A model generated the notes under the pieces. It worked only from the letters and a program-made list of their open reading frames with translations, was not told where the DNA came from and searched no databases. From a virus, in the IMG/VR virus record IMGVR_UViG_3300000976_000011, positions 64,001 through 128,000 of that record: DNA of 64,000 bases. One strand, 5' to 3'. Below are positions 415 through 61,837 of this stretch, one piece after another. Position 1 is the first letter of the stretch. Each line of letters opens with the position of its first letter. The position numbers and the translations under genes are program-made.

Positions 415-451
415 AAAAGTTCGATTGTTATAATTCGAACTTTTATAAATA
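415..451 (+). promoter_or_regulatory. Hairpin followed by late promoter of the GIY-YIG gene
   Basis: AAAAGTTCGA(415-424)/TCGAACTTTT(435-444) inverted repeat; TATAAATA at 444-451. Confidence 0.7.
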
Positions 452-1117: not shown

Positions 1118-1195
1118 GTGCTAGTGGCTGAGTGGTCCAAGGCAACAGCTTGCAAACCTGTAAAACCGTCAGTTCGAATCTGACCTAGTACTCCA
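1118..1195 (+). tRNA. tRNA-Cys(GCA)
   Basis: Acceptor GTGCTAG/CTAGTAC, anticodon loop TT-GCA-AA, T-arm GTCAG-TTCGAAT-CTGAC, U73 discriminator, encoded CCA. Confidence 0.9.
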
Positions 1196-2521: not shown

Positions 2522-3381
2522 ATAATTTTGAATTTCAACCCGAACTTAAAGTAGATTTTTTAACTTTTAGCGACGGCGCTGAACATGTGCAATTAGATCC
2601 TAATTCTGTTTATACTTCAATGGATCTATATGCGAATTTAAATTCATCTCAAAACATAATGAGATTTTTCTTACTTATTGAAGCTCTTAATGAAGTACAA
2701 AAACAAGATGGTCATGTAGGAAATCTTACAGTTGATATGCCTTATTTACCATATGCAAGACAAGATCGACACTGCGCCCCTGGACAGTCATTTGCTTTAG
2801 ATGTCTTTATGGGACTATTGTCTAGAGCAGTATATAATTGTGAAAACTTAAATATAATTTTTGATGTTGAAGATTTACACAGCGATGTAGCTTTAGAATT
2901 AGCTGAAACTTGGAGCTTACAATTCAATCACCACACCCAACTAGATGCCATCAAGCAAGATGAAGAAGTAAAAGCATTTGTACAAGATTGTGATGTAGTA
3001 ATATCTCCTGATGCTGGTGCTACTAATAAATCAGCTGAGATAGCTAATTATTTAGAAATTTGGCATTTTGCTTCTAGTAAAAAGAGAGATCCAAAAACTG
3101 GATATATCACAAAAACAGATGTCCATTGCTCTCATGCACCAGAGTACGTAAAAGATAAAAATGTTCTTATTTGTGATGATATATGTGACGGTGGAATGAC
3201 TTTCAACCTGCTAGCCGATGAATTGAAAAAGTATGAACCAGCTAGTATAAATTTATTAATCTCACATGGAATTTTTAGCAAAGGAATTGATACATTAAGA
3301 GAAAATTTTGATTCTTTAATGGTTCTTAATTGTATGAATGATGATTTAGAAGATGATGAATTTTTAACGATTATTAGTTAA
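2518..3381 (+). CDS. prs: Ribose-phosphate pyrophosphokinase-like protein (Adps-like, NARP1)
   Basis: FSDGAE, MPYLPYARQDR, DLHS, SPDAGA, ICDDICDGGMTF, HGIFSKG. Confidence 0.9.
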   Translation: MNNFEFQPELKVDFLTFSDGAEHVQLDPNSVYTSMDLYANLNSSQNIMRFFLLIEALNEVQKQDGHVGNLTVDMPYLPYARQDRHCAPGQSFALDVFMGLLSRAVYNCENLNIIFDVEDLHSDVALELAETWSLQFNHHTQLDAIKQDEEVKAFVQDCDVVISPDAGATNKSAEIANYLEIWHFASSKKRDPKTGYITKTDVHCSHAPEYVKDKNVLICDDICDGGMTFNLLADELKKYEPASINLLISHGIFSKGIDTLRENFDSLMVLNCMNDDLEDDEFLTIIS

Positions 3382-3565
3382 TAAAATCAAAGCCTAAATC
3401 TTTAAACGATTGTCCTATACAATCAGTTCCTAAACTTGTTAGATATTTTGATCGATGATAAGATTTATTAGTAACTAGCTTATTTGAATTTTTAACTCGA
3501 TTAAGTTTCTTAACCTGATTTATTATGTTATAATATCTGTCACTAAATTTATTTTTAATTAACAT
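3374..3565 (-). pseudogene. Internally deleted HNH homing endonuclease (N- and C-termini only)
   Basis: MLIKNKFSDRYYNII..KLNRVKNS joined to IGQSFKDLGFDF; both ends match full HNH genes at 16711, 19639, 30480 and 60782; keeps late promoter at 3571-3578. Confidence 0.75.
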
Positions 3566-3582
3566 ATAACTATTTATACAAT

Positions 3583-3768
3583 ATGAAAAAAGTAACAAAG
3601 AAAGAACGTAAACGTCAAGGTAGAAATGCCTTTGTTAGAAACATTTTAGCAAATGGCCGGAGTTTTACATTAGGAAACGAATTGTATGTTAGAGGATTAC
3701 CTCAAACTGGCTCTAAAGGATATATGGTAGAAATGCCTATTGTAAGAGTTTCTTATGGAACATCTTAA
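3583..3768 (+). CDS. Hypothetical basic protein
   Basis: ORF in operon orientation. Confidence 0.5.
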   Translation: MKKVTKKERKRQGRNAFVRNILANGRSFTLGNELYVRGLPQTGSKGYMVEMPIVRVSYGTS

Positions 3769-3937: not shown

Positions 3938-5649
3938 TGGAAATTAATTACAAAAATCCTATTTTTCATACAGATTTTTACAAAACAGGCCACCTTAAAC
4001 AGTATCCTGAAGGTACTGAATTTGTCTATTCAAATTTTACTCCTAGATCAGATAAAATTGCTCGAAGAAATGGCGATGTCCTAAAAGATTTCGATGGTAG
4101 AGTAGTAAATTTCGGATTACAAGGCATTATTGTAGAATTTTTAATAGAATCATTTAATGAACACTTTTTCGGTGTGTCTATGATGAAAGCTATTGAAGCT
4201 TATCAATTTGTAATGGATAGCGCATTAGGTCCTAATGTTGTTACTTCAGAACATTTAGAAGAATTGTGGGAATTTGGTAGCTTACCTTTAGAAATTAAAG
4301 CTTTACCTGAAGGTGCAAGAGTACCAGTAGGTGTTCCATTATTTACAATTATTAATACGGATGAAAGATTCTACTGGTTAGTAAATTATTTAGAGACCGT
4401 ATTATCTTCTGAGTTATGGCAATCATGTACTAGTGCTACAATCGCCTATGAATATAAGCGATTATTATCTTATTATGCTAATAAAACTGGCGTTCCTCCT
4501 GAATTCGTTGCTATTCAAGGCCACGATTTTTCTTTTAGAGGATTAAGTTCAAGATTTAGCGCTGTAAAATCAGCCATTGGCCACTTAACAAGTTTTATTG
4601 GAACAGATACTATACCAGCTATTCCATATCTGATGCAATATTATGGAGCAACAAATGATATTATGCCTATTGGTGTAAGTGTTCCTGCTACTGAGCACAG
4701 TGTTATGTGTTTAGGTGGCCAAGAAACTGAAATTGATACTGTCCGTCGACTAATTGTTGATAAGTACAACTCAGGCGTGATATCGGTAGTATCTGATACA
4801 TGGGATTATTGGCAACTTCTTACAAAATTTACGACAGAATTGAAGCCTGAAATTCTAGCTAGAGAAGCCGATGCTAATGGTCTATCTAAAGTAGTTTTTA
4901 GGCCTGATAGTGGAAATCCTGTAGATATTATTTGCGGTTTAGATTTTCAAGACTTTGACAAGCAGATAGAGCTAGGTTTAGTTGATAAACATAGTGTGTA
5001 TATGGATTCCATGGCTATATGTAGTCCTTTATCTGATTATAATGATCAAAACTACTTATCAATAGATGCTGTTAAATATGAAGATAAGTTCTATTCAGTA
5101 GAAAATGGGTCAATACGATGGAAGAAAGAGATTCCATGTCATGTTGTAAAAGGTTCTGTAGAAGTTTTATGGGATATATTTGAAGGAAATGTTAACGATA
5201 AAGGTTATAAAGAATTAAATGATAAAGTTGGCCTAATTTATGGTGATTCTATTACTATTTCTAGAGCTGAAGAAATTCTAAGAAAATTAGAAGCTAAAGG
5301 TTTTGCATCTAGCAATATCGTTTTTGGTATTGGTTCATATACATATCAATATAACACTCGAGATACTTTTGGTTTTGCCATGAAAGCTACTTGGGGAGTT
5401 GTTAATGGAGAAGAAAGAGAAATCTTTAAGGATCCTAAGACTGATGATGGTACTAAAAAATCAGCTAAAGGTCTTTTAAGTGTTGGAACCGATAATGAAT
5501 ATGATGAAACTATTAATTATGTATTAGTAGATCAATGTGAAAAATCAACTGAAGAAATCGGCTACTTAGAAACTATATTTTTAAATGGTAAATTAATTAA
5601 AGAAACTAGTTTACAAGAAGTTCGCGATAGATTAGAATCTAGCAAATAG
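3937..5649 (+). CDS. nadV: Nicotinamide phosphoribosyltransferase-like protein (Namat-like, NARP1)
   Basis: TDFYKTGH..QYP, HDFSFRG, SVPATEHSVM, SVVSDTWD, FRPDSG, IYGDSIT, RDTFGFAMKAT, KDPKTDDGTKKSAKG. Confidence 0.95.
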   Translation: MEINYKNPIFHTDFYKTGHLKQYPEGTEFVYSNFTPRSDKIARRNGDVLKDFDGRVVNFGLQGIIVEFLIESFNEHFFGVSMMKAIEAYQFVMDSALGPNVVTSEHLEELWEFGSLPLEIKALPEGARVPVGVPLFTIINTDERFYWLVNYLETVLSSELWQSCTSATIAYEYKRLLSYYANKTGVPPEFVAIQGHDFSFRGLSSRFSAVKSAIGHLTSFIGTDTIPAIPYLMQYYGATNDIMPIGVSVPATEHSVMCLGGQETEIDTVRRLIVDKYNSGVISVVSDTWDYWQLLTKFTTELKPEILAREADANGLSKVVFRPDSGNPVDIICGLDFQDFDKQIELGLVDKHSVYMDSMAICSPLSDYNDQNYLSIDAVKYEDKFYSVENGSIRWKKEIPCHVVKGSVEVLWDIFEGNVNDKGYKELNDKVGLIYGDSITISRAEEILRKLEAKGFASSNIVFGIGSYTYQYNTRDTFGFAMKATWGVVNGEEREIFKDPKTDDGTKKSAKGLLSVGTDNEYDETINYVLVDQCEKSTEEIGYLETIFLNGKLIKETSLQEVRDRLESSK

Positions 5650-7935: not shown

Positions 7936-8434
7936 AATCTTATTAATTCTATTTACTGCCGCAGCATTGTTCTTTGGTTATCTATTAATCGCTGGAGCTG
8001 AAGAAACAGGACCAACTACCGATGAAATTTGTTTAGCTCAAAATATTTATCATGAAGCTAGAGGAGAAAGTGCTTTTGGTCAGCTCATGGTAGCTTTAGT
8101 CACAATCAATCGTTTAAATTCTGATATTGCTCCATTTAATAAATATAAATCTATATGTGATGTAGTATTTGATGGCGGGTATGGACCCACAGGAGCAACT
8201 ACGTGTCAGTTTGCTTGGACCTGCGATTCTATTCCTGACTTTTTACCTAAGCATTACATGAAACAAGTAAAAGAAAATCTATTACCTATTTTAGAAACTT
8301 CTACTTTAGATGATTGTTATCTTTATTATCACGCAGATGATGGCAGAGAAAGAGGATGGATTCAAAGAGGCGGTTTAACAGATCCCTTAAAAGTAGGTAA
8401 TCATCTATTTTATAAGGATCCTTCTTGTAAATAA
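7922..8434 (+). CDS. SleB-like cell wall hydrolase (Hydrolase_2) with N-terminal signal/TM
   Basis: CLAQNIYHEARGE, VTINR, CQFAW, VGNHLFY. Confidence 0.9.
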   Translation: MTRYKILLILFTAAALFFGYLLIAGAEETGPTTDEICLAQNIYHEARGESAFGQLMVALVTINRLNSDIAPFNKYKSICDVVFDGGYGPTGATTCQFAWTCDSIPDFLPKHYMKQVKENLLPILETSTLDDCYLYYHADDGRERGWIQRGGLTDPLKVGNHLFYKDPSCK

Positions 8435-8440
8435 TTTTAT

Positions 8441-8510
8441 GCCTAGTCCTTTGGAAGGAAGCGAGACTCCAAATCTTGCTAACGGGGTTCGATTCCCTGA
8501 CTGGGTGCCA
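8441..8510 (+). tRNA. tRNA-Trp(CCA)-like gene with shortened D-arm
   Basis: Acceptor GCCTAGT/ACTGGGT, anticodon arm CGAGA-CTCCAAA-TCTTG, T-arm CGGGG-TTCGATT-CCCTG, G73, CCA; only 70 nt. Confidence 0.75.
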
Positions 8511-13770: not shown

Positions 13771-14378
13771 ATATGTTTACAATTATTGAAGTGGTATCGT
13801 TTCATAAGATTTAAACCTCCAACTTTAGAGCAGTGAGGACAAGAAACTTTTTCTTTAGGACCAAACATTTTATCTTTATTTTTTCTTGGTTTTCTCATTT
13901 TAGATAAAGTTTCTTCTGATTTCTTAGTACCATACTGTGGATGTTTTGAACCTGAAAAATCTGCATGATTTTTAGACATATTTCTTTTATGGTCCTCTGA
14001 TTTGGGTACTCCATATAGTGGTGAAAGTTTTCCTTTATATTTTGATGCTGCAATCGATAACTTCTTTTTAGTTTCGTTAGATGTAGGTTTTCTAGTATAA
14101 GTACTGGCTCCACCTTCTTTAAGATTATAATATAAAGAACTATTAACGGCGTCAACAGACTTTATATATGATTCCTCTTTATTATTTAAATCTTGTAAGT
14201 CTTCACATATTTGAAGAATTTTCCTAGAAAAATGCTCTTTACCATATTTCCTAATAGCCTTATGTAATAAAGTTCCTGAACCTAAATAATTATCGTCCAA
14301 ATAGCCAAAATGTTGACCTATATACTTTTTCTTATTAATTAGATTTGTTGTTTCATAAACAAAGTGTATTTTAGACAT
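13767..14378 (-). CDS. Seg-like GIY-YIG homing endonuclease with NUMOD3 and C-terminal Zn-binding motif
   Basis: FVYETTNLINKKKYIG, YLGSG, YYNLKEGG, CPHC..GG..MKRYHFNNCK; late promoter at 14410-14417 (-). Confidence 0.9.
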   Translation of the reverse strand: MSKIHFVYETTNLINKKKYIGQHFGYLDDNYLGSGTLLHKAIRKYGKEHFSRKILQICEDLQDLNNKEESYIKSVDAVNSSLYYNLKEGGASTYTRKPTSNETKKKLSIAASKYKGKLSPLYGVPKSEDHKRNMSKNHADFSGSKHPQYGTKKSEETLSKMRKPRKNKDKMFGPKEKVSCPHCSKVGGLNLMKRYHFNNCKHI

Positions 14379-16710: not shown

Positions 16711-17541
16711 CTACTCATGAGACTTTTCGAATGTGAAACCTAAATCTCTAAGAGATTTACCTATAATAGAGTTATCATAAGTTTTATTTAAGTAATTAGA
16801 TTTCTGATAAAATGTTTTAGTGATAACTCTATTATTTTTACAAAAATCTCTTATTTGTCTAATACTTAATAGTCCGTTTGAAACATCTATAGATTTTAAT
16901 GTTTCAAACTTTCCTATAGGGGTAATCCAGTAGCCTTTCCAAGAAGGATTGTTTTTATTAAGAATAGAATTCGATATATTATCCTTATGTTTCTGCGATA
17001 AAGAAGAACCTAATTTTGCTAAAGATATATTTTTACTGTGTTCTTTAGATCTAATTTTACCTTTTAATTTTTCTGAGAGTAATCTTTTAGTTTGTTCTGA
17101 AACTTTAGGTTTAGAAAATGCGCTTTTAGACATTTTCGCTTTACTTTCTTTACTATGTTTTCTACCATTCATCGGGCCTTTAGTTCCAAACCAATGATTG
17201 TTAGATCCTTTCATAGAATTTGAATGCTCGAGTCTATATTTTTCAAACAATCTGGAATTAATCTTATTTTTGTATTTAGATAAATTACACATATACCATC
17301 TTGCTCTTACCATCTTTTCATGATCAAGTCCTTTTGTAAATTTAGGTAATAGAAGGTGAGCTATAAAGTGTTCTTTTGCCGTCAGCAAGACTAAATTAGT
17401 TTTATCATTAGAGCCATTACAAGATTTAGGTATTATATGGTGAGATTCATAATAAGCATCTTTCTTAGATCTTTTTAGTTTACTTCTAGAATTAATTAGG
17501 TTATAATACCAATTATAGTATTTGTTATTTAATATATCCAT
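16711..17541 (-). CDS. MobE-like HNH homing endonuclease with NUMOD3 repeats
   Basis: YESHHIIPKS.NGSND..NLVLLTAKEHFIAHLLL; HSKESKAKMS; late promoter at 17547-17554 (-). Confidence 0.92.
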   Translation of the reverse strand: MDILNNKYYNWYYNLINSRSKLKRSKKDAYYESHHIIPKSCNGSNDKTNLVLLTAKEHFIAHLLLPKFTKGLDHEKMVRARWYMCNLSKYKNKINSRLFEKYRLEHSNSMKGSNNHWFGTKGPMNGRKHSKESKAKMSKSAFSKPKVSEQTKRLLSEKLKGKIRSKEHSKNISLAKLGSSLSQKHKDNISNSILNKNNPSWKGYWITPIGKFETLKSIDVSNGLLSIRQIRDFCKNNRVITKTFYQKSNYLNKTYDNSIIGKSLRDLGFTFEKSHE

Positions 17542-17559
17542 ATAACTATTTATAAAATT

Positions 17560-19430: not shown

Positions 19431-19651
19431 TTAATGAAGAAGATTTCGACATAGAAATAAAAAAATTATTTGATGAAATTGTTTTCTCGGATAGTTTACA
19501 AAACAAACTAAATAGTTTAAAATTCTATATCTCAATAGAGCCTGATTTTGAAATGGATTCATTAAAGGTATCATTAGACTATTGCAATAAATATAATTTC
19601 TACAGAAGGATCTGTTTCTACTTTCAAGGTAAGGTGCCTTACCTGATTTGA
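19427..19651 (+). CDS. Hypothetical protein
   Basis: ATGA-coupled; 3' end overlaps the HNH gene. Confidence 0.5.
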   Translation: MINEEDFDIEIKKLFDEIVFSDSLQNKLNSLKFYISIEPDFEMDSLKVSLDYCNKYNFYRRICFYFQGKVPYLI

Positions 19652-20391
19652 GGACAATTATCGAAATGATAAGGTTTCATATTAGCTAAAGATCCAGTTT
19701 TGCCGCAATTTGGGCATAGACCTCTAGGCCTAATTTTTCCTTTAAGAGCTTTAGATACTGCATCTTTATGACTCTGAGATATTTTTTTACCCTTATTGGC
19801 TTTCGAAATTTTAGCTTTTACAACATTTGAGTGATCTTTTCCATAAAATGGATTATTTTCGCCTGAGTAATTTTGAGAATTATATGTAGCTCTCCTAATA
19901 GAAGCTTCTTTTTTTCTTTTGTCGGACCAAGAATCGGACATTTTGTCTCTAGTTTCTTGAGAATAAATATGACCGTACATAGGGTTGTTTTCTGGCTCAG
20001 CAAGACGTTTCTTGGTACTCTTTGATAATTTGTCTCTAGTTTCTTGAGAAATTATTCTATTTGACATACTCACAGAAAACTTTTTCTTTATTTTATCATA
20101 AAGAAAAGAATTGATTTTATTTTTGCTGGTTGATCCCATCATAACTATAGCAAATAACATAGATTTTTTATCCTTTCCTTTTAAAAATCTAGGTAATAAT
20201 AAATGAGCTATAAAGTGTTCTCTAGCAGTAAGAAGTACTAAATTATCGGGTCGATTAGATCCACCTAAACTTCTAGGAATTATGTGATGTTGTTCGAAGT
20301 AATTTTTAGAGTTTTTAACTCTATTTAGTTTACTTCTTGATTCCATTAAGTTATAATACCACGTGGAATATTTGTTTTTAATTTCGTTCAT
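19639..20391 (-). CDS. MobE-like HNH homing endonuclease
   Basis: FEQHHIIPRSLGGSN..NLVLLTAREHFIAHLLL; NNPMYG/NNPFYG NUMOD3; CPNC..MKPYHFDNC. Confidence 0.92.
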   Translation of the reverse strand: MNEIKNKYSTWYYNLMESRSKLNRVKNSKNYFEQHHIIPRSLGGSNRPDNLVLLTAREHFIAHLLLPRFLKGKDKKSMLFAIVMMGSTSKNKINSFLYDKIKKKFSVSMSNRIISQETRDKLSKSTKKRLAEPENNPMYGHIYSQETRDKMSDSWSDKRKKEASIRRATYNSQNYSGENNPFYGKDHSNVVKAKISKANKGKKISQSHKDAVSKALKGKIRPRGLCPNCGKTGSLANMKPYHFDNCPQIR

Positions 20392-20444
20392 AAATATATT
20401 TATAGGAGTTCAATATTCAATTTTTAGATTACAGAGGCTATATC

Positions 20445-30479: not shown

Positions 30480-31100
30480 TTACTTAAATTTACAGTTAGA
30501 AAAATGATATCTTTTCATATTGCCAGTGCCGCCTTCTTTTCTACAATAAGGGCATTTAATTATTTCTTGAGGCCCTTTAGATTTTCCCTTACCACTTTTA
30601 GACATTTTCTTTCTGGTTTCCTTAGTGTGAGTTTTACCATAAAAAGGATTACCTGAACCCATTCTGTTTTTAGATTGATTTAATTTTCTTTCTTCGGAAT
30701 GTGGAATGTTTGATAAATGGTGCTCTCCTTTCTTTATTTTAAAGCTCGGATGATTCACGCCGCTTATAGACTTCACAAATTTTAATCTTGTTTCTTCATA
30801 TAAGTTAGATTTATATTTTTTATTAAAATTAGACATCATGTTCCAAGCTGCTAGCATCTTAAAAAGAGATTTACCTTTTGTAAACTTTGTTAACAAAATA
30901 TGTGCTATATAATGTTCCCTAGCTGAAAGTAGTACTAGGTTCTCAGGATCATCTGAACCGTCCATAGATCTAGGTATTATATGGTGTGATTCATAATAAA
31001 TTTCTGCAGTTTTAACTCGATTAAGCTTACTTCTAGATTCCATTAAGTTATAATACCATTTGGAATATTTGTTAATAATAAAATCTCTATGAATAAACAT
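30480..31100 (-). CDS. MobE-like HNH homing endonuclease
   Basis: YESHHIIPRSMDGSDDPENLVLLSAREHYIAH; NPFYGKTHT; CPYC..MKRYHFSNCK. Confidence 0.92.
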   Translation of the reverse strand: MFIHRDFIINKYSKWYYNLMESRSKLNRVKTAEIYYESHHIIPRSMDGSDDPENLVLLSAREHYIAHILLTKFTKGKSLFKMLAAWNMMSNFNKKYKSNLYEETRLKFVKSISGVNHPSFKIKKGEHHLSNIPHSEERKLNQSKNRMGSGNPFYGKTHTKETRKKMSKSGKGKSKGPQEIIKCPYCRKEGGTGNMKRYHFSNCKFK

Positions 31101-31110
31101 ATTTGCTCCT

Positions 31111-31198
31111 TATAAATAAAATTATGAGGGACAGCAATGATGCTCCGTTGTTTCCTTAAGCTACAACTTAAGGATTACCTCAATTTTTAATATTTATA
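31111..31198. ncRNA. HNH-associated structured element, copy 1, between convergent late promoters
   Basis: GAGGGACAGCA..GCTCCGTTGTT-[TCCTTAAG/CTTAAGGA]-TTACCTC flanked by TATAAATA and TATTTATA. Confidence 0.7.
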
Positions 31199-31730
31199 GA
31201 AAGTCTGTATTTACCATTCCCTTTTCAGTTAATATAGAAAACTGCCAACCTTTTTTCTTAGCATATATTTTAGCCGCTTTCCACTTAGCAACATTTATTA
31301 TATATGTTGTTGCTTTATCCTCCCACTTTTTAGTTTTACGTTTCGGCTTCTTGGGTTGCTGAGTTTGGTCATATGGCTTAATTTCTACTATAGCTTCTTT
31401 AATAATTCCATTCTTATCTCTGAATTTCATATATACATCCATAAAGTACCGGTGAAATTTACCTGTTGTAGGTTTCTTATAAGGTATCACAACTTCTTCG
31501 CTGGACCAAGCAATAACGTTTGGATTTCTATCCATTTTTAAGAAATAGTTCAATTCCCAGCTGCTCCGATATACTATTTTTGTATAATCACCTTTATATT
31601 TTTTAGGGTTTTTAGGTGTAAATTTACCCTGATGATTAAATAATATTATGGATATTGAAGATATTAAAAATAGAGTCTTTGGACAAGGATTAGCCCGAAG
31701 AAATAGATTCCAAGTAGAAATTCCAGGCAT
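31194..31730 (-). CDS. gp4: Head completion nuclease (start uncertain)
   Basis: GKFTPKNPKKYKGD, YRSSWE, WSSEEVVIPY, HRYFMD, EIKP..QT, NVAKW.AA. Confidence 0.9.
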   Translation of the reverse strand: MPGISTWNLFLRANPCPKTLFLISSISIILFNHQGKFTPKNPKKYKGDYTKIVYRSSWELNYFLKMDRNPNVIAWSSEEVVIPYKKPTTGKFHRYFMDVYMKFRDKNGIIKEAIVEIKPYDQTQQPKKPKRKTKKWEDKATTYIINVAKWKAAKIYAKKKGWQFSILTEKGMVNTDFL

Positions 31731-32133
31731 TCCTGAGGATTTATTGGCTAGTGAATGTAATCTTCCTGCTTTAAATATCAACACAACTCCTAATAGACAT
31801 TATCCGCCGATGCACCACGTTGCAACTGATATAGTATTTGAAGACTTAGCTATAACTTTTTACGTTGATTCGAATTATAACATACGTAAACAATTTCAGC
31901 TTTGGATCAATGAAATTATTAATATTCAGGATGGCTCGTGGAATTTCTTTGATGAATATGTAAGAGACATCAACATCTCGTTTCAAGATGAAGAGAACGC
32001 TGATAAGTTGGAAGTAAAATATATAAATTGCTTTCCGAAGTCTATAGGATCAATCGATAAATCTTATGAATCACAGAACGAAATACAAACATTTCAAGTA
32101 ATTTTTTCATATACTCAGTACCAAATACTTTAA
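31648..32133 (+). CDS. gp54: Baseplate/tail tube initiator (gp19/gp54 family)
   Basis: GLARRNRFQVEI, ITFYVD, F..W...I, FDEY, FPKSIG. Confidence 0.75.
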   Translation: MDIEDIKNRVFGQGLARRNRFQVEIPGIPEDLLASECNLPALNINTTPNRHYPPMHHVATDIVFEDLAITFYVDSNYNIRKQFQLWINEIINIQDGSWNFFDEYVRDINISFQDEENADKLEVKYINCFPKSIGSIDKSYESQNEIQTFQVIFSYTQYQIL

Positions 32134-39951: not shown

Positions 39952-42900
39952 ATGTTAGATACTAATCAAGCTCCATATTTTAATGACTTTGATGCATTAA
40001 AAAACTATTTTGAAATTTTATTCGTTCCAGAACGAGCTGTTCAAGCGCGCGAATTAAGCCAAATTCAATCTATTTTACAGAATCAACTTAGACAAAATGC
40101 ATCTCACTTCTTTAAAGATGGCTCAAATATAACAAATGCTTCAGTTTCTGTTTCATTTAATCAAGATGTTGTGGATTTAAATGCTACCGATGTAAACTCT
40201 AATGCAGTAAATATAGATGAATCGTGGGTTGGTCGGGTTTTCGTTGGCCAAACTTCAGGAGCAACATTTAGAGTTACATCAGTAGACTCTACTCTTAGAA
40301 AATTATACATTCAACCATTAGCTGGTACTTTAATCAATGAAAATATTGATATTGATCCTATTCAAGATTCGGCTTCTCCTACCACTCTTTTAGGAACTAT
40401 TAATAATATTGGTAAAGCTATAAAAGCTACCAATGATCCAGGTATCGTATTTGCCAATGGTTTCTTTATTCAAACTAGTCAACAGGAAATTATAGTTCAG
40501 CAAGATGGCGTATCAGGAAGTCATGTTATTGGATTCGAATTTGAAGATTCATTTGTTACTGAAGGAGAAGATGGAAGTCTTGTTGATCCAGCAAATGGTT
40601 CACCTAATCAAAATGCTCCAGGTGCTCACAGACTTAGAGCTGAATTAGTTCTGTCGTCTTATGAAGCATCCGGCGAAATTCCAGATGAATTTTATGCATT
40701 TGTCACTATTGAAGATGGAGTTATAGTTTCAACACATAATGCAGTTCAATATGCTGATATTATAGATTTATTAGCAACTAGAACATTCGATGAGTCTGGT
40801 GATTATACTGTTAGTAATTTTCCACTTATTTTAGAAGATAATGTAAATGACGAAAGTAAATTAGATTTAGTCTTAGAACCAGGTAATGCCTACGTTCAGG
40901 GTTATAATTTTAGAACAATTTCTCCTCAAACTATTACTATAGATAAACCAAGAACTACCAATTTATCGAATGCCGCCAATATATATTCTAGCTTCGGTAC
41001 ATTTTTCATCGTAGATTCTATGAGTGGTGGTCTGCTGGATGTTTCTAGAAAGCAACAAGTAAGATTATTTTCTGATATAGATGGTAATGGAACTGAAATA
41101 GCTCCTACCAACACTATAAGAGTTATGAGTTTATATGAAATTAATTCATCGCTTAGAATATATCTTTCGGGTATAGCAGACTCTCAAGCTATTTTTTCAT
41201 CAGTAAGATCTATTACTTCTATTGATGGTGCTAAAATAGTTAATATTGATACTAGAGCATTAGAGCAAGATAGATTAACAGGTACAGTTGAAGAGTCATT
41301 ATATGGTATTTCACCAAATCCTGCCGCTATATTATTTCTAAATAATGATAATGTTTCTGATGTTGTTTTAAATGATACAAATTTCAGGACTCAAAGATCA
41401 TATATTGGCTATACTAATAAAGTAGGTAATGATTTTGTTATAGATTCAGGCGATCAATTCACAGATTTCGCTGCCACTGGTGGTTCATCAGCCGTCGTTG
41501 CTGTTTTTGATTCAATTTCGGGCGCAGATTTAACATCTACAGCTTTAGCTAGTGTGAGTGGACCGGATTTTCAAACATTAACACTATCTAATATATCACC
41601 AGCTATTACTTCTATTGATGTTATAACATCACAAATAACAAAAACTAATACTGCTGCTAATCCAAAGACAAAAATTATTACAGAAGTACCAGCACAGTTT
41701 GTGACGGATGCTAATGGTAATACAACACTAACTAATGTTGATATCTTTGAAATAGTATCTCTTATAAGAGATCCTTCAGGGGCAGCAGAAGTTATCAATG
41801 TTAATTCAATTAATTTAAATAACGGCCAAAATGATTTCTTTTATGATTTTGGTAGTATTTCTGGATTAGCAGCAAATGAAACATATGATATAGTATATAG
41901 ATATTTCGCACACTCTGGAACTGGAGATTATTTTTCAGTAAACTCATATATCAACGCGACTAATCAAGGTTTTTATGCTGATATCTATTCAAGGATTTAT
42001 AATTATAGAAGTCAAGATGGTTTATTAGATTACCAGATAAGTGATTGCTTAGATTTCAGAAGATCAGTTAATGATCTTGCATCTGGAACGGATATTGTTG
42101 CACCAGAAAGCGCTTTATTTTTAGATTACAATTACTATTTACCTAGAGTTGATAAAATTTATATCACAACTGAAGGAAACTTTGGAGTAACTAATGGTAT
42201 TCCTAATGATTTCACAGATGAACCCAATGATCTACCAAATTCATTAACTCTTTATACTTTAAATCTTCCTGGATATACTAGAAATTCTGAAGAAGTTCTT
42301 GTCAATTTAGAAGATACTCAAAGATATACTATGAGAGATATCGGCCGATTGGAAAAGCGTATTGAAGATTTAGAATATTACACAGCACTATCATTAGTAG
42401 AAAATGAAACGAATTCTTTGCTTATTTTAGATGCTGATGGTAACAACAAATTCAAAAATGGTATATTAGTTGATTCTTTTCAAGACCACTCTATTGGTGA
42501 TACATTATCGCCAGATTATTTAGTTGCTATTGATGAGCAAGAACAAGAAGCAAGACCTACATTTACTGTTGACTCTATTGATCTTATAACACAGCAAGAA
42601 GCATACTTAATAGGCGGTAATGATTGGCCTAATCAGATTAATAATATCTCTGTTAATGAGAATACTTTAACATTAGCTTTTACACCTACAGTAATGATTG
42701 ATCAGCCTAGAGCTAGTGAAACCATTAATGTAAATCCATTTAATGTTTTCGTGTGGTATGGAGATATTAAGCTTGTTCCGCCATCAGATAATTGGATTGA
42801 TACGGAATTTAAGCCTTCTGTAACAGTTTCTATTGATGGAAATGTAGATGCTTTTAGAAGAGCAGCTAATTTCATGGGAACTAAATGGAACTCGTGGAAT

Positions 42901-47394: not shown

Positions 47395-47469
47395 AATTCA
47401 TACCTTAATTATTTCTATATTGATATTATATTTTAAATTTATCCTAAAGTAAACTATATAAATATTAAT

Positions 47470-60781: not shown

Positions 60782-61444
60782 CTATAATTCGTTAAACCAG
60801 AAACCTAAGTCTCTGAATGTCTTACCTATTATGTCTTCCTTAGTACCTATACTTTTTAAATAATTAGAATGACCATATGATTTTGAATTTATAACTCTAT
60901 CAGCATCTTTGCACCATTTATGTATAGTGATAAATGGTAGCATCGGTATATTTTGCTCTGCTTCTAATGATGTAATAAATGTTCCGTAGGGAGTTCGATA
61001 ATTACCTTTATATTTAGGGTGCTTCTTGCCTATTTTAGCCTTAGACATTTTATCTTTAGTTTCAATTGAAATTTTCTTACCAAAATTGTAGTGATTCTTA
61101 CCTTTCATTCTTAATGACATATAAATAGAGTAATCTTGGCGCAGACTTTGATATATTTTAGAATTAATTCTAACGTTTTCGTCTCTATTTGACATAAACA
61201 TATAAGCACATAACATCTTATAATAATATTCATCCTTTGTAAATTTAATTAGAAGCATATGAGCAATAAAGTGTTCCCTAGCAGTAAGTAAAACTAGGTT
61301 ATCGGGCTCATCTGAACCACCTAAAGACTTAGGAGTTATATGGTGAGATTCATAATAAACTTCTTTAGACTTTCTTCTGTCGAGATTTTTACGTGAGCTA
61401 CATAGATTAAAATAATGAAAATAGTATTTGTTCTTAATAAACAT
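60782..61444 (-). CDS. MobE-like HNH homing endonuclease
   Basis: YESHHITPKSLGGSDEPDNLVLLTAREHFIAH; TPYGTF; IIGKTFRDLGFWF. Confidence 0.92.
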   Translation of the reverse strand: MFIKNKYYFHYFNLCSSRKNLDRRKSKEVYYESHHITPKSLGGSDEPDNLVLLTAREHFIAHMLLIKFTKDEYYYKMLCAYMFMSNRDENVRINSKIYQSLRQDYSIYMSLRMKGKNHYNFGKKISIETKDKMSKAKIGKKHPKYKGNYRTPYGTFITSLEAEQNIPMLPFITIHKWCKDADRVINSKSYGHSNYLKSIGTKEDIIGKTFRDLGFWFNEL

Positions 61445-61454
61445 CTTAGCCCCT

Positions 61455-61546
61455 TATAAATATAATAGTAATGAGGGACAGCATTAGTTAGCTCCGATGT
61501 TGATAATTGTTGGCGCAGTTATCTTACCTCTTCATTATTATTTATA
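61455..61546. ncRNA. HNH-associated structured element, copy 2, between convergent late promoters
   Basis: GAGGGACAGCA..GCTCCGATGTT-[GATAATTG/CAGTTATC]-TTACCTC flanked by TATAAATA and TATTTATA. Confidence 0.7.
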
Positions 61547-61561
61547 AAATCAAAAATAGAT

Positions 61562-61837
61562 ATGGAAAAATATAAAAATCTTCCAACAGTAATACAAGCA
61601 GCTCGCTGGATGGGAATGACTAATAAAGATGCAGAAAAATTCTCTGAAGATCATAAAATTCCTGTTTTTAAAGTTGGTGCTCGAAACGGCAAGTTTGGTT
61701 TAATTGTTCAAACTTTAGAAGGTGATGCCGTAGCACAAAGAGGCACTTGGATTTTGAAAGGTACTAAAGGTGAATTTTGGCCTGTTCGAGCAGATATATT
61801 TAAACAAAAATATGAAAAAGTAGAAGATGATTCTTAA
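61562..61837 (+). CDS. Conserved small phage protein
   Basis: P.VIQA.RW, TLEGD, G.WI.KG.KGEF.PV..DIF..KYE. Confidence 0.75.
   Translation: MEKYKNLPTVIQAARWMGMTNKDAEKFSEDHKIPVFKVGARNGKFGLIVQTLEGDAVAQRGTWILKGTKGEFWPVRADIFKQKYEKVEDDS

Follow-up and report, generated by a model that had tools for sequence, protein, structure and literature searches.

A covarying three-way-junction RNA family that accompanies homing-type nuclease genes in T4-like phages and carries loops complementary to their ribosome-binding sites

Two elements in the 64,000-nucleotide stretch of viral DNA analysed here (the window) are members of one family of structured, covarying small RNAs, a family that is uncatalogued, with no match in Rfam 15. 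The motif occurs four times in a 141.7-kb T4-like phage genome, twice inside the window and twice outside it, and at least 19 further distinct copies were found on contigs of uncultured phages. A single scaffold is combined with ten or more distinct loop sequences, each of which matches the ribosome-binding site of the neighbouring gene, and the loop of each RNA matching the nuclease ribosome-binding site suggests that the RNA probably limits the amount of nuclease. We hold with moderate confidence that the element would be a late-promoter-driven scaffold RNA with a programmable loop that masks the nuclease ribosome-binding site, acting as an antisense RNA in the gene layout of the window and as an mRNA leader in a second layout.

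Structure and covariation of the RNA family

Read on the + strand of the window, the RNAs of the family are 43-64 nt long (56-58 nt for the window copies) and form a three-way junction. The constant scaffold consists of a closing stem P1, a GAC junction, the base of a stem P2 with an invariant G.U pair, a stem P3, and a junction U-(U/A)-A. The RNA core of copy 1 lies at 31126-31181 (+), with a predicted fold of -16.9 kcal/mol (z -2.98), and is composed of P1 (31126-31129 with 31178-31181), the GAC junction (31130-31132), P2 (31133-31139 with 31146-31152, loop 31140-31145), P3 (31153-31160 with 31167-31174, loop 31161-31166), and the junction UUA (31175-31177). The core of copy 2 lies at 61473-61530 (+), with P1 at 61473-61476 and 61527-61530, the base of P2 at 61480-61485 and 61496-61501, and P3, including one U.G pair, at 61502-61509 and 61516-61523. 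Both elements and their flanking boxes were located where the original prediction had placed them, and its description of the shared blocks, of two 8-bp stems unlike each other, and of the GAGG/CCUC closure was correct. An 11-base block common to the two copies has exactly two mismatch-free occurrences in the window, and a covariance model built from the genome copies scored copies 1 and 2 at 77.2 and 74.7 bits (77 and 75 bits, rounded), with the next window match at 11 bits.

The expected covariation held over the four genome copies and again over 20 distinct sequences. For the genome copies, 96% of cells were paired and nine pairs showed compensatory change, values reached by none of 500 shuffles; for the 20 sequences, 96.2% were paired and 15 of 19 pairs were compensatory, in a 21-row alignment that was fitted to the model and so leans towards the structure, while controls with a slid alignment gave 38-55% paired. 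P1 itself covaries at pairs 2:90 (AU, CG, GC, UA) and 3:89. Some 14 positions do not vary among the 21 aligned copies, which come from several phages (P1 bases 1 and 4, GAC, AG, UU, and U.AC..C), and the stem sequences vary freely between copies. The claim that G.U pairs favour the + strand stands on the G9.U39 pair, invariant in 20 of 20 sequences, and on five G.U against no A.C pairs in P3, although it is weaker if only the variable pairs are counted; members of the second layout, with their gene downstream on the same strand, independently back the + strand as the RNA strand.

At the gathering threshold, an Rfam 15 search of the whole window returned two tRNAs only, and the same search of eight member loci returned tRNAs and one group I intron elsewhere but no family match. 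With E up to 10, the two window copies gave only weak, unrelated Rfam 15 matches, all below 20 bits, and the lack of a hammerhead, twister, or HDV match noted originally was borne out: none of these, and no pistol or hatchet, was found at that threshold on either strand of the 301 bases around each window copy. Pattern searches for further members returned mostly chance matches. A loose exact pattern matched 119 stretches in IMG/VR, those outside this genome being chance; two stricter patterns gave only chance matches within coding sequence in IMG/VR; and a stricter pattern gave 10 chance matches (23 bits or less) in prokaryote genomes and 14 stretches in JGI metagenomes, among which the copy L236 was the sole real member. 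No element was found at 27 loci of HNH relatives (26-49% identity), at 80 loci of head completion protein relatives, at the same locus of the closest GIY-YIG relative of L236, or on the two contigs examined for the closest HNH relatives in a large protein collection, which were at most 51% identical. Three member regions had no BLAST match among 50,697 phage records, and Pelagibacter phage HTVC008M, the nearest cultured relative by the head completion protein (56% identity), did not match model R2. Given this absence from Rfam and from the cultured phages searched, the family is visible only in metagenomic phage contigs.

Nuclease neighbours and late-promoter boxes

The copies fall into two layouts. 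In the divergent layout (16 copies, including those of the window) the element is opposite in strand to a nuclease-like gene (HNH, GIY-YIG, zinc-finger, or unknown) and has the late-promoter box TATAAATA on either side; in the sense layout (7 copies) element and gene share a strand, with the gene downstream. Inside each of three genomes, with 4, 4, and 3 copies, the copies are co-oriented. All four copies of the genome under study adjoin HNH genes or an HNH remnant. In the window, copy 1 is followed on the - strand by HNH gene 1 (30480-31100), a free-standing endonuclease of 206 aa with HNH and NUMOD3 domains, and copy 2 by HNH gene 2 (60782-61444, -), of the same type with 220 aa and a C-terminal domain unlike that of gene 1. 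As noted originally, the other two full HNH genes (16711-17541 and 19639-20391, both -) have no element and start 5 nt after TATAAATA. Copies elsewhere adjoin GIY-YIG, HNH, TnsA-like, zinc-finger, or unknown genes, so the proposed link to nucleases holds, but confining it to HNH genes was too narrow. The partner nucleases are of the homing type, have 175-345 aa and no RuvC domain, and span at least three unrelated folds (HNH, GIY-YIG, and TnsA-like).

Between this genome and the phage carrying L236 and L261, the module from promoter to start codon is common (80% identity over 110 nt), and the only other common part is the C-terminal knuckle of the nuclease. These comparisons indicate that the RNA module moves with homing-type nuclease genes across phages otherwise sharing nothing detectable, in agreement with the original prediction of a mobile, nuclease-associated structured RNA. 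Genome copy 3 is intact next to a frameshifted nuclease remnant, which shows that an element can persist without a working target.

As a word, TATAAATA is about as frequent in this AT-rich window as expected (22 occurrences against 21), so its meaning depends on position rather than on frequency. Of the 51 TATAAATA boxes in the genome, eight are separated by exactly 5 nt from a following ATG, a recurrence that makes the box a credible promoter, and the recurrent box-N5-ATG arrangement predicts a + RNA start 6 nt after the box. The distance from box to P1 is fixed in nearly all copies. A + box (any first base) precedes P1 by 5-11 nt in 15 of the 16 divergent copies and 6 of the 7 sense copies, a frequency partly ascertained because two of the member-finding scans demanded that box; a - strand box accompanies 14 of the 16 divergent copies and none of the seven sense copies. 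Convergent late-type boxes, 2-10 nt from P1, bracket the element in 14 of the 16 divergent copies. For copy 1 the + box (31111-31118, 7 nt before P1) sits between the RNA and the HNH ribosome-binding site, and the - box (31191-31198, 9 nt before the P1 complement) abuts the head completion gene (31194-31784, -) at its stop codon. The latter is presumably the own late promoter of HNH gene 1, in which case the mRNA leader would be the antisense of the RNA core. For copy 2 the boxes lie at 61455-61462 (+, 10 nt before P1) and 61539-61546 (-, 8 nt before the P1 complement), the second being the presumed late promoter of HNH gene 2. In each window copy the + box overlaps a sigma-70-like match, but such matches are no commoner than in shuffles, and no terminator-like site was found.

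Loop complementarity, proposed mechanism, and rival explanations

For divergent copies, the complementarity is between the P2 loop and the Shine-Dalgarno and spacer sequence of the copy's own gene. The longest shared words between loop and site were 4-13 nt in the 16 divergent copies, and the match covers Shine-Dalgarno sequences other than GGAG as well, in L281 (13 nt; 8443-8455 = 8407-8419), L319, and L298. None of 100,000 random pairings reached the observed sum of word lengths, and none was as stable as the observed duplexes (mean -12.2 kcal/mol for a copy's own loop vs -8.3 for other loops), although the copies are related to each other and these counts, like the one for the sense layout below, overstate independence. 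The own loop ranked first for 8 of the 16; the energy test was not significant for the first five copies only (17/120) and became so only at 16. Little or no loop match was seen in L350 and L279, and L309 bears the loop of a relative. The matches of the window copies are modest. In copy 1, six bases (31104-31109) of the translation initiation region of HNH gene 1 (31101-31110, -) recur at 31141-31146 in the P2 loop and arm (L001 1477-1482 = 1514-1519), which makes the loop of the + RNA complementary to the Shine-Dalgarno of the - strand mRNA over 6 nt, the own loop ranking 6th of 16. In copy 2, eight bases of the initiation region of HNH gene 2 (61445-61453, -) match the P2 loop at 61488-61495 with one C/T difference, a G.U wobble in the predicted RNA-RNA duplex, and the own loop ranked 1 of 16. 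In the sense layout it is the P3 loop that is complementary, in cis, to the downstream Shine-Dalgarno, in six of seven copies (permutation 14/5040), as in L278 over 12 nt (1532-1543 with 1574-1585). This complementarity was absent from the original prediction. On the DNA of the divergent layout it takes the form of a direct repeat, so that the - strand reads equally well as a duplicated initiation region. Treating the repeats as a target-site duplication was rejected because the conserved element runs well past the second repeat, and a conserved peptide encoded by the short - strand frame was likewise rejected, as nothing is kept after the four codons fixed by the invariant block and one group has a CUG start.

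In the mechanism that we propose, the RNA would start a few bases after a T4-type late-promoter box and would carry, in a variable hairpin loop, the complement of the Shine-Dalgarno and spacer of the neighbouring nuclease mRNA. With the nuclease on the other strand and its late promoter beyond the element, the + RNA of the divergent layout would be antisense to the whole nuclease leader, and its P2 loop would additionally pair with the real ribosome-binding site outside the transcript overlap. In the sense layout, the same scaffold would lie in the leader, its P3 loop pairing with the Shine-Dalgarno in cis. Loop pairing is expected to block ribosome binding, so that nuclease synthesis would be held down. 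Transcription of both strands, pairing of the loop in infected cells, and repression as the effect are all predictions from sequence. The + promoter also points out of the cassette towards the neighbouring late genes and may restore their transcription. Among the four mechanisms suggested originally, the antisense antitoxin and autoregulatory switch are of the kind that fits, given loops complementary to the nuclease ribosome-binding site in two gene layouts, whereas an RNA cofactor or guide for the nuclease is unsupported, given partners of at least three unrelated folds and a variable loop directed at an mRNA site rather than DNA, and a small ribozyme is likewise unsupported because no known ribozyme family matched with E up to 10.

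The duplicated initiation region invites a reading in which the - strand nuclease mRNA is the working molecule and the + RNA is irrelevant: the leader would hold a second initiation region (Shine-Dalgarno, spacer, and NUG) followed by the invariant pyrimidine-rich block, forming a cis switch, whether through a decoy or standby site or through a short upstream frame with translation coupled to that of the nuclease. The - box would indeed place this leader within the nuclease's own transcript, most copies have UUG, AUG, or GUG where the start codon would correspondingly stand, the short frame of genome copies 1, 2, and 4 stops no more than about 15 nt from the nuclease start, and in the predicted fold of the late - transcript the true Shine-Dalgarno is mostly paired, partly with the invariant block (copies 1, 2, and L236; unpaired probability 0.17-0.27). 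We nevertheless consider this reading unlikely. The NUG triplet is CUG in the L291/L305/L309 group, and its first base takes four values and covaries with its P2 partner at 12:36 (AU, CG, GC, UA), as expected of a + strand helix and not of a start codon. Moreover, on the - strand an A.C mismatch, just as invariant, would replace the invariant G.U, the invariant block is unable to pair with the variant Shine-Dalgarno of L281, L319, and L298, a cis switch leaves the match to the spacer bases unexplained, and the sense members have no - promoter and use the complementarity on the + strand. Similarly improbable, in our judgement, is a portable promoter or insulator cassette with a PeSL-like role, in which an outward late promoter and a 5'-terminal structure would spare the neighbouring late genes and the loop matches would be secondary. 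Such a cassette would suit the + strand gene that lies about 15-90 nt downstream in most copies, the + strand genes at 61562 and 61827, which have no other preceding late box and so may both be fed by the + transcript of copy 2, the co-orientation within each genome (the window copies run with the structural genes), and the survival of copy 3 beside a dead nuclease; invading endonucleases are also described as displacing promoters or introducing new ones, and they can create antisense transcripts (review PMC2988022). It accounts neither for the copy-specific complementarity to initiation regions in two layouts nor for the invariant junction bases, and the + transcript of copy 1, like that of L236, would enter - strand genes in antisense orientation. 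In several copies, too, the downstream gene has a further late box immediately following the element, and PeSLs are early-promoter and terminator stem-loops acting via sequence homology, whereas here the stems differ.

The constancy of the junction raises the question of whether it is the active part of the molecule, either as a new self-cleaving or processing RNA or as a protein or small-molecule aptamer that would gate the anti-Shine-Dalgarno loop in riboswitch fashion. About 14 invariant positions among freely varying stems is a pattern typical of a tertiary fold or binding site, and small ribozymes are known to occur in phages. We regard this as very unlikely, since no Rfam ribozyme or riboswitch matched (window copies with E up to 10, eight loci at the gathering score), the sequence holds no pointer to a cleavage site, and the junction has only 6 unpaired bases, fewer than in the three-stem ribozyme cores known to us; a new ribozyme class remains conceivable in silico. 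That the element is functionless and reflects mere shared descent of paralogous nuclease cassettes is scarcely credible. The copies do adjoin paralogous genes with common N-terminal coding sequence, but the nuclease proteins are only 41-50% identical and even have different folds, yet the junction blocks are identical, and the stems have been rewritten with pairing kept, as the covariation counts demonstrate. We also put forward, with considerable doubt, that the invariant junction may serve a conserved factor of phage or host (a protein or the ribosome) as a handle, with the variable loop as a guide. Such an element would be a general, reprogrammable RNA-guided translational silencer, attached by T4-like phages or by the nucleases themselves to any newly arrived selfish nuclease gene and acting in cis or in trans, a natural combination of scaffold and guide directed at ribosome-binding sites.

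Relation to known systems and significance

The principal selfish elements of T4-like phages are homing endonuclease genes, and it has long been asked how phages can tolerate them. To our knowledge, the controls known so far are idiosyncratic hairpins and autorepression acting on single genes. If the proposed mechanism is true, these genes would have in the conserved RNA scaffold a portable control module of a new kind, one that accompanies nucleases of three unrelated folds and has passed between unrelated phages. The scaffold would in addition be a compact solution, found in nature, for directing an RNA to a ribosome-binding site of choice, and the loop/site pairs may serve as a ready-made set for compensatory-mutation tests.

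Control by RNA hairpins and late promoters is described for the T4-type homing endonucleases I-TevI, I-TevII, I-TevIII, segB, and Aeh1 mobE (review PMC2988022). The present family resembles the I-TevI type in having a selfish nuclease gene in a T4-like phage, an adjoining TATAAATA box, and Shine-Dalgarno pairing that would limit translation. In the I-TevI type, however, a simple hairpin on the mRNA itself holds the Shine-Dalgarno in its stem and contains the late promoter, so that late transcripts escape, whereas here the complement lies in the loop of a three-way junction. In the window layout the match on the mRNA is a repeat and not a complement, the - box lies outside the whole element, so that late transcripts would not be freed of an inhibitory arm, and the RNA, being opposite to the nuclease strand, would have to act in trans or as an antisense RNA. 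In the sense members the + box precedes the loop bearing the complement, contrary to the I-TevI-type placement.

Antisense RNAs that silence genes of selfish elements include RNA-OUT of IS10, the hok/sok type I toxin-antitoxin system, and the c4 RNA of P1/P7. Like these, the element would be a small, stable stem-loop RNA made from a promoter facing the target transcript, and it has a loop complementary to the ribosome-binding region and a potentially harmful target, and c4 acts outside its coding overlap and in cis on the same transcript, much as the sense layout is predicted to do. Unlike these RNAs, with which it has no similarity in sequence or structure, the family combines one conserved fold with many loops and many unrelated nuclease genes, and its + promoter lies between target site and RNA, so that the overlap would exclude the ribosome-binding site. 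The antisense RNA CfrI of cyanophage S-PM2, encoded between psbA and F-CphI, a homing endonuclease gene (Millard et al. 2010, summarised in PMC12197685), offers a further comparison. What the two would share is an antisense RNA beside a homing endonuclease gene of a marine T4-like phage, but, compared by description only, the summary presents a longer, psbA-linked transcript and describes no conserved three-way junction or loop/site match. T4-type phages also have PeSL cassettes, in which an early (sigma-70 type) promoter is joined to a terminator stem-loop and which are proposed to provide homology for recombination (PMC2839356, PMC4122927). These are likewise short, repeated intergenic promoter and stem-loop cassettes that accompany variable genes in T4-like genomes, but, being nearly identical in sequence from copy to copy, they differ from the present elements, which have late-type boxes, a three-way junction, and stem sequences that differ between copies. 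An RNA adjoining an HNH-domain gene also brings to mind the omega RNA of IscB/HEARO. That system pairs a RuvC and HNH protein of about 400-500 aa with a long omega RNA upstream on the same strand. The original prediction was right to set it aside, as the window partners, of 206 and 220 aa, have HNH and NUMOD3 domains only and no RuvC, and the RNA, of 56-58 nt, lies on the opposite strand; here, moreover, the variable part matches the ribosome-binding site of an mRNA.

The element and its setting in the source genome

The two elements in the window were found where the original prediction placed them, with the core of copy 1 at 31126-31181 (+) flanked by TATAAATA boxes at 31111-31118 (+) and 31191-31198 (-), and the core of copy 2 at 61473-61530 (+) flanked by boxes at 61455-61462 (+) and 61539-61546 (-). 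Its description also fits the blocks common to both copies, the GAGG/CCUC closure, and the two 8-bp stems, which are unrelated to each other; the 11-base 5' block had exactly two perfect occurrences within the window. The adjoining HNH genes (30480-31100 and 60782-61444, both -) encode proteins that are 41% identical to each other and carry HNH and NUMOD3 domains, a combination typical of free-standing homing endonucleases. Four copies, all on the + strand, were found when the entire record was searched by pattern, two of them outside the window: one (L004) adjoins a full HNH gene and the other (L003, genome copy 3) a frameshifted C-terminal HNH remnant. At the latter (L003 1300-1471; genome about 42496-42609) the RNA is fully intact next to a remnant of only about 50 codons, out of frame with a retained start codon, so the RNA module can outlive its nuclease.

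The source record is 141,675 bp long with terminal repeats and 30.7% G+C, and the window comprises its bases 64001-128000. Since the nearest match of its head completion protein is the one from Pelagibacter phage HTVC008M (56% identity), we take the source phage to be a marine T4-like myovirus, apparently with no close relatives in the searched collections. Its load of free-standing endonuclease genes is unusually heavy, with about ten HNH/NUMOD3 paralogues (in the window, 16711-17541, 19639-20391, 30480-31100, and 60782-61444) and several remnants (near window 3383-3493 and 13776-14018). A related uncultured phage (L248 683-1811) has an HNH gene at the same site after the head completion gene, which it overlaps by 8 nt, with 44% identity to HNH gene 1 and without the RNA element.

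As predicted, the other two full HNH genes in the window (16711-17541 and 19639-20391, both -) lack the element and carry TATAAATA with exactly 5 nt between it and the ATG, and this spacing holds for HNH paralogues without the element across the source genome. The arrangement was found for 8 of the genome's 51 boxes (in the window at 17547-17554 (-), 20397-20404 (-), 444-451 (+), and 47457-47464 (+), among others); as a word, the box was not enriched in the window. Based on this recurrence, we regarded the box as a genuine late promoter from which transcription would start 6 nt downstream, a rule by which the + and - transcripts of the element are predicted to begin 2-5 nt outside P1. The recurrence also suggests that many late mRNAs of the source phage are leaderless, including those of HNH genes without the element.

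Fold and covariation

Folding of the + strand revealed three helices: a closing stem P1 of GAGG paired with CCUC, a 6-7-bp helix P2 in which the opening AGCA pairs with UGUU through one G.U pair, and a variable 8-bp stem P3. The predicted covariation of the stems was borne out at both depths of alignment. For the four genome copies, 96% of cells pair, with compensatory changes in nine pairs, a result matched by 0 of 500 shuffles. For 20 distinct sequences, in an alignment fitted to a covariance model and hence leaning toward the structure, 96.2% of cells pair, compared with 67% in shuffles and 38-55% with slid partners, and both-sided changes occur in 15 of 19 pairs. P1 is invariant within the source genome but covaries in the family (AU, CG, GC, and UA at pair 2:90; AU and GC at 3:89), four pair types occur at P2 pair 12:36, and P3 varies at every pair. 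Invariant in the enlarged family are P1 bases 1 and 4, the junction GAC, the P2-opening AG and closing UU, and the 3'-side U.AC..C.

Pair G9.U39 is G.U in all 20 sequences and P3 contains five G.U pairs and no A.C, all A.C cells lying at the poorly aligned top of P2. This agrees with the original prediction that G.U pairs favour the + strand, although by itself it is a modest argument; the two gene layouts described below are a stronger one. No Rfam 15 family lies at the element: searches returned only two tRNAs for the whole window at gathering score, only weak unrelated matches around each window copy at E up to 10, and no family at the element at eight member loci. The two tRNA genes of the window are at 330-404 and 1118-1192 (+).

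Relatives in other phages

Loose or over-strict patterns returned only chance matches in IMG/VR, loci picked through relatives of the HNH or head completion protein did not contain the element, and neither a BLAST search of cultured phages nor a covariance-model search of HTVC008M found it. A metagenome scan yielded one true copy (L236 2772-2830, 56.5 bits). This copy has both late boxes, its P3 is new and 9 bp long, and it adjoins a GIY-YIG (SegE-like) gene inserted beside a topoisomerase gene. This phage and the source phage have in common only a 110-nt module, reaching from the - box to the start codon with 80% identity, and the C-terminal knuckle of the nuclease, and its topoisomerase and other genes had no tblastn match in the source genome. 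We concluded that the module moved between unrelated phages and now stands before a different catalytic domain. The first 12 codons of the topoisomerase large-subunit gene occur a second time upstream of the inserted GIY-YIG gene and the RNA module (L236 101-1972 and 2852-3031, -) and look like an insertion footprint.

Later scans, using patterns of the box and invariant 5' block only followed by a covariance-model filter, found many more copies, bringing the family to at least 23 distinct copies, in which the scan patterns themselves account for part of the + box frequency. Two further whole records yielded four and three copies in a single orientation within each, so that copies are co-oriented in the source record (G000, four), the L266 record (G001, three), and the L267 record (G002, four); in the window their strand is that of the structural late genes. 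The proposed linkage to HNH genes held in the window, while neighbours elsewhere were GIY-YIG plus NUMOD3 as well as HNH plus NUMOD3 genes, a fusion of a zinc finger with a TnsA-like nuclease, further zinc-finger proteins, and a number of unknowns. The L266 phage (IMG/VR record of 134,550 bases) is TAG-recoded, with genes open only when TAG is read as a residue (for example 873-1664, 2884-3623, and 4877-5626; TAG was read as Q solely for opening the frames) and several GIY-YIG genes with in-frame TAG codons. The contig of another family member carries a group I intron (L281 3788-4086, -; RF00028, 59 bits).

Loop complementarity and its interpretation

In both layouts, the + RNA has a loop whose sequence complements the ribosome-binding site of the adjoining nuclease-type gene. 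The divergent layout comprises 16 distinct copies, including both window copies, in which the opposite-strand gene starts 25-35 nt left of P1 with the + box in between. A - strand box lies 2-10 nt past P1 on the far side in 14 of these and in none of seven sense copies, so we assign it to the opposite-strand gene, whose mRNA leader would then be antisense to the RNA. Letters from the + strand stretch separating start codon and + box recur in the large P2 loop, which is thus complementary to the Shine-Dalgarno sequence and spacer of the - mRNA. Words common to loop and site were 4-13 nt: 13 nt in L281, whose Shine-Dalgarno is not GGAG; 9 nt in L236 and L305b; 8 nt in L272, L276, L291, and L298; 7 nt in genome copy 4, with an unusual Shine-Dalgarno sequence; 8 nt in window copy 2, counting one G.U pair; and 6 nt, only Shine-Dalgarno length, in window copy 1. 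In L319 and L298 the loops have CCUG opposite a CAGG-type site. The exceptions were L350 and L279, with little match, and L309, with a relative's loop. The total match was reached by 0 of 100,000 random loop-site pairings, as was the mean duplex energy (-12.2 kcal/mol for own loops versus -8.3 for foreign loops), with the reservation that the copies are mutually related.

In the seven distinct sense-layout copies, where the gene lies downstream on the same strand, the P2 loop is short and has no such match, and in six of seven the P3 loop carries the complement, in cis, of the Shine-Dalgarno region that follows 15-35 nt downstream. In L278 the complementary stretch is 12 nt long (1532-1543 with 1574-1585), and in L273, L275 (one wobble), L364, L371, and L384 it is 6-7 nt, with a permutation count of 14/5040 among mutually related copies. 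A duplication at the DNA level could mimic the divergent match, a direct repeat, but not the sense match, an inverted repeat; RNA pairing explains both.

The structure, linkage, complementarity, and promoter placement observed here fit a late-promoter-driven scaffold RNA whose programmable loop would mask the nuclease ribosome-binding site; we infer its transcription, its pairing in vivo, and this direction of effect. In the window layout, the RNA would be antisense to the entire nuclease mRNA leader, with the + promoter placed between the true ribosome-binding site and the RNA, so that this site falls just beyond the overlap, and the P2 loop would supply the complementarity that the overlap misses. 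For the window copies, a - strand device is also attractive, in which the nuclease mRNA leader would contain a second copy of the initiation region as a decoy, or else a coupled short frame. However, one group has CUG as the triplet equivalent to the start codon, and this triplet covaries in the manner of a helix position, the invariant G.U would become a mismatch on the - strand, the invariant block is unable to pair with variant Shine-Dalgarno sequences, and sense-layout members act on the + strand.

A PeSL-like cassette serving purely as promoter/insulator leaves the loop matches and the invariant junction unexplained. A new ribozyme or aptamer at the junction is an improbable reading that nothing supports, the small ribozyme of the original prediction finding no backing in the Rfam searches of the window copies and eight member loci. 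Its guide RNA for the nuclease was rejected, as was an IscB-type system, since the partner nucleases are small and belong to three or more unrelated folds; its exclusion of IscB/HEARO holds.

RNA-OUT, Sok, and P1 c4 RNA, antisense RNAs that silence genes of selfish elements, are among the closest functional parallels of the loop-masking RNA. So are the hairpins that sequester the ribosome site of T4 endonuclease genes (PMC2988022), and cyanophage S-PM2 has an antisense RNA, CfrI, beside a homing endonuclease gene (PMC12197685). Ribosome-site masking and antisense silencing of selfish genes are thus already known, whereas none of these systems shows the fold, a single scaffold carrying many different loops, or the two layouts, which on this comparison are new in the element.

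A second role of the + promoter, restoring transcription displaced by the insertion, is plausible, as this promoter faces the neighbouring late genes and, in copy 2, the genes at 61562 and 61827 have no late box before them other than the + box; a concern raised in a review of T4 mobile elements fits such displacement (PMC2988022). A sigma-70-like match also lies over the + late box (31094-31122 and 61438-61466, +), its -35 part over the HNH start codon, and host polymerase might therefore also make the + RNA early; the match in copy 2 covers 10 of 12 positions, and such matches are no more numerous than in shuffled sequence.
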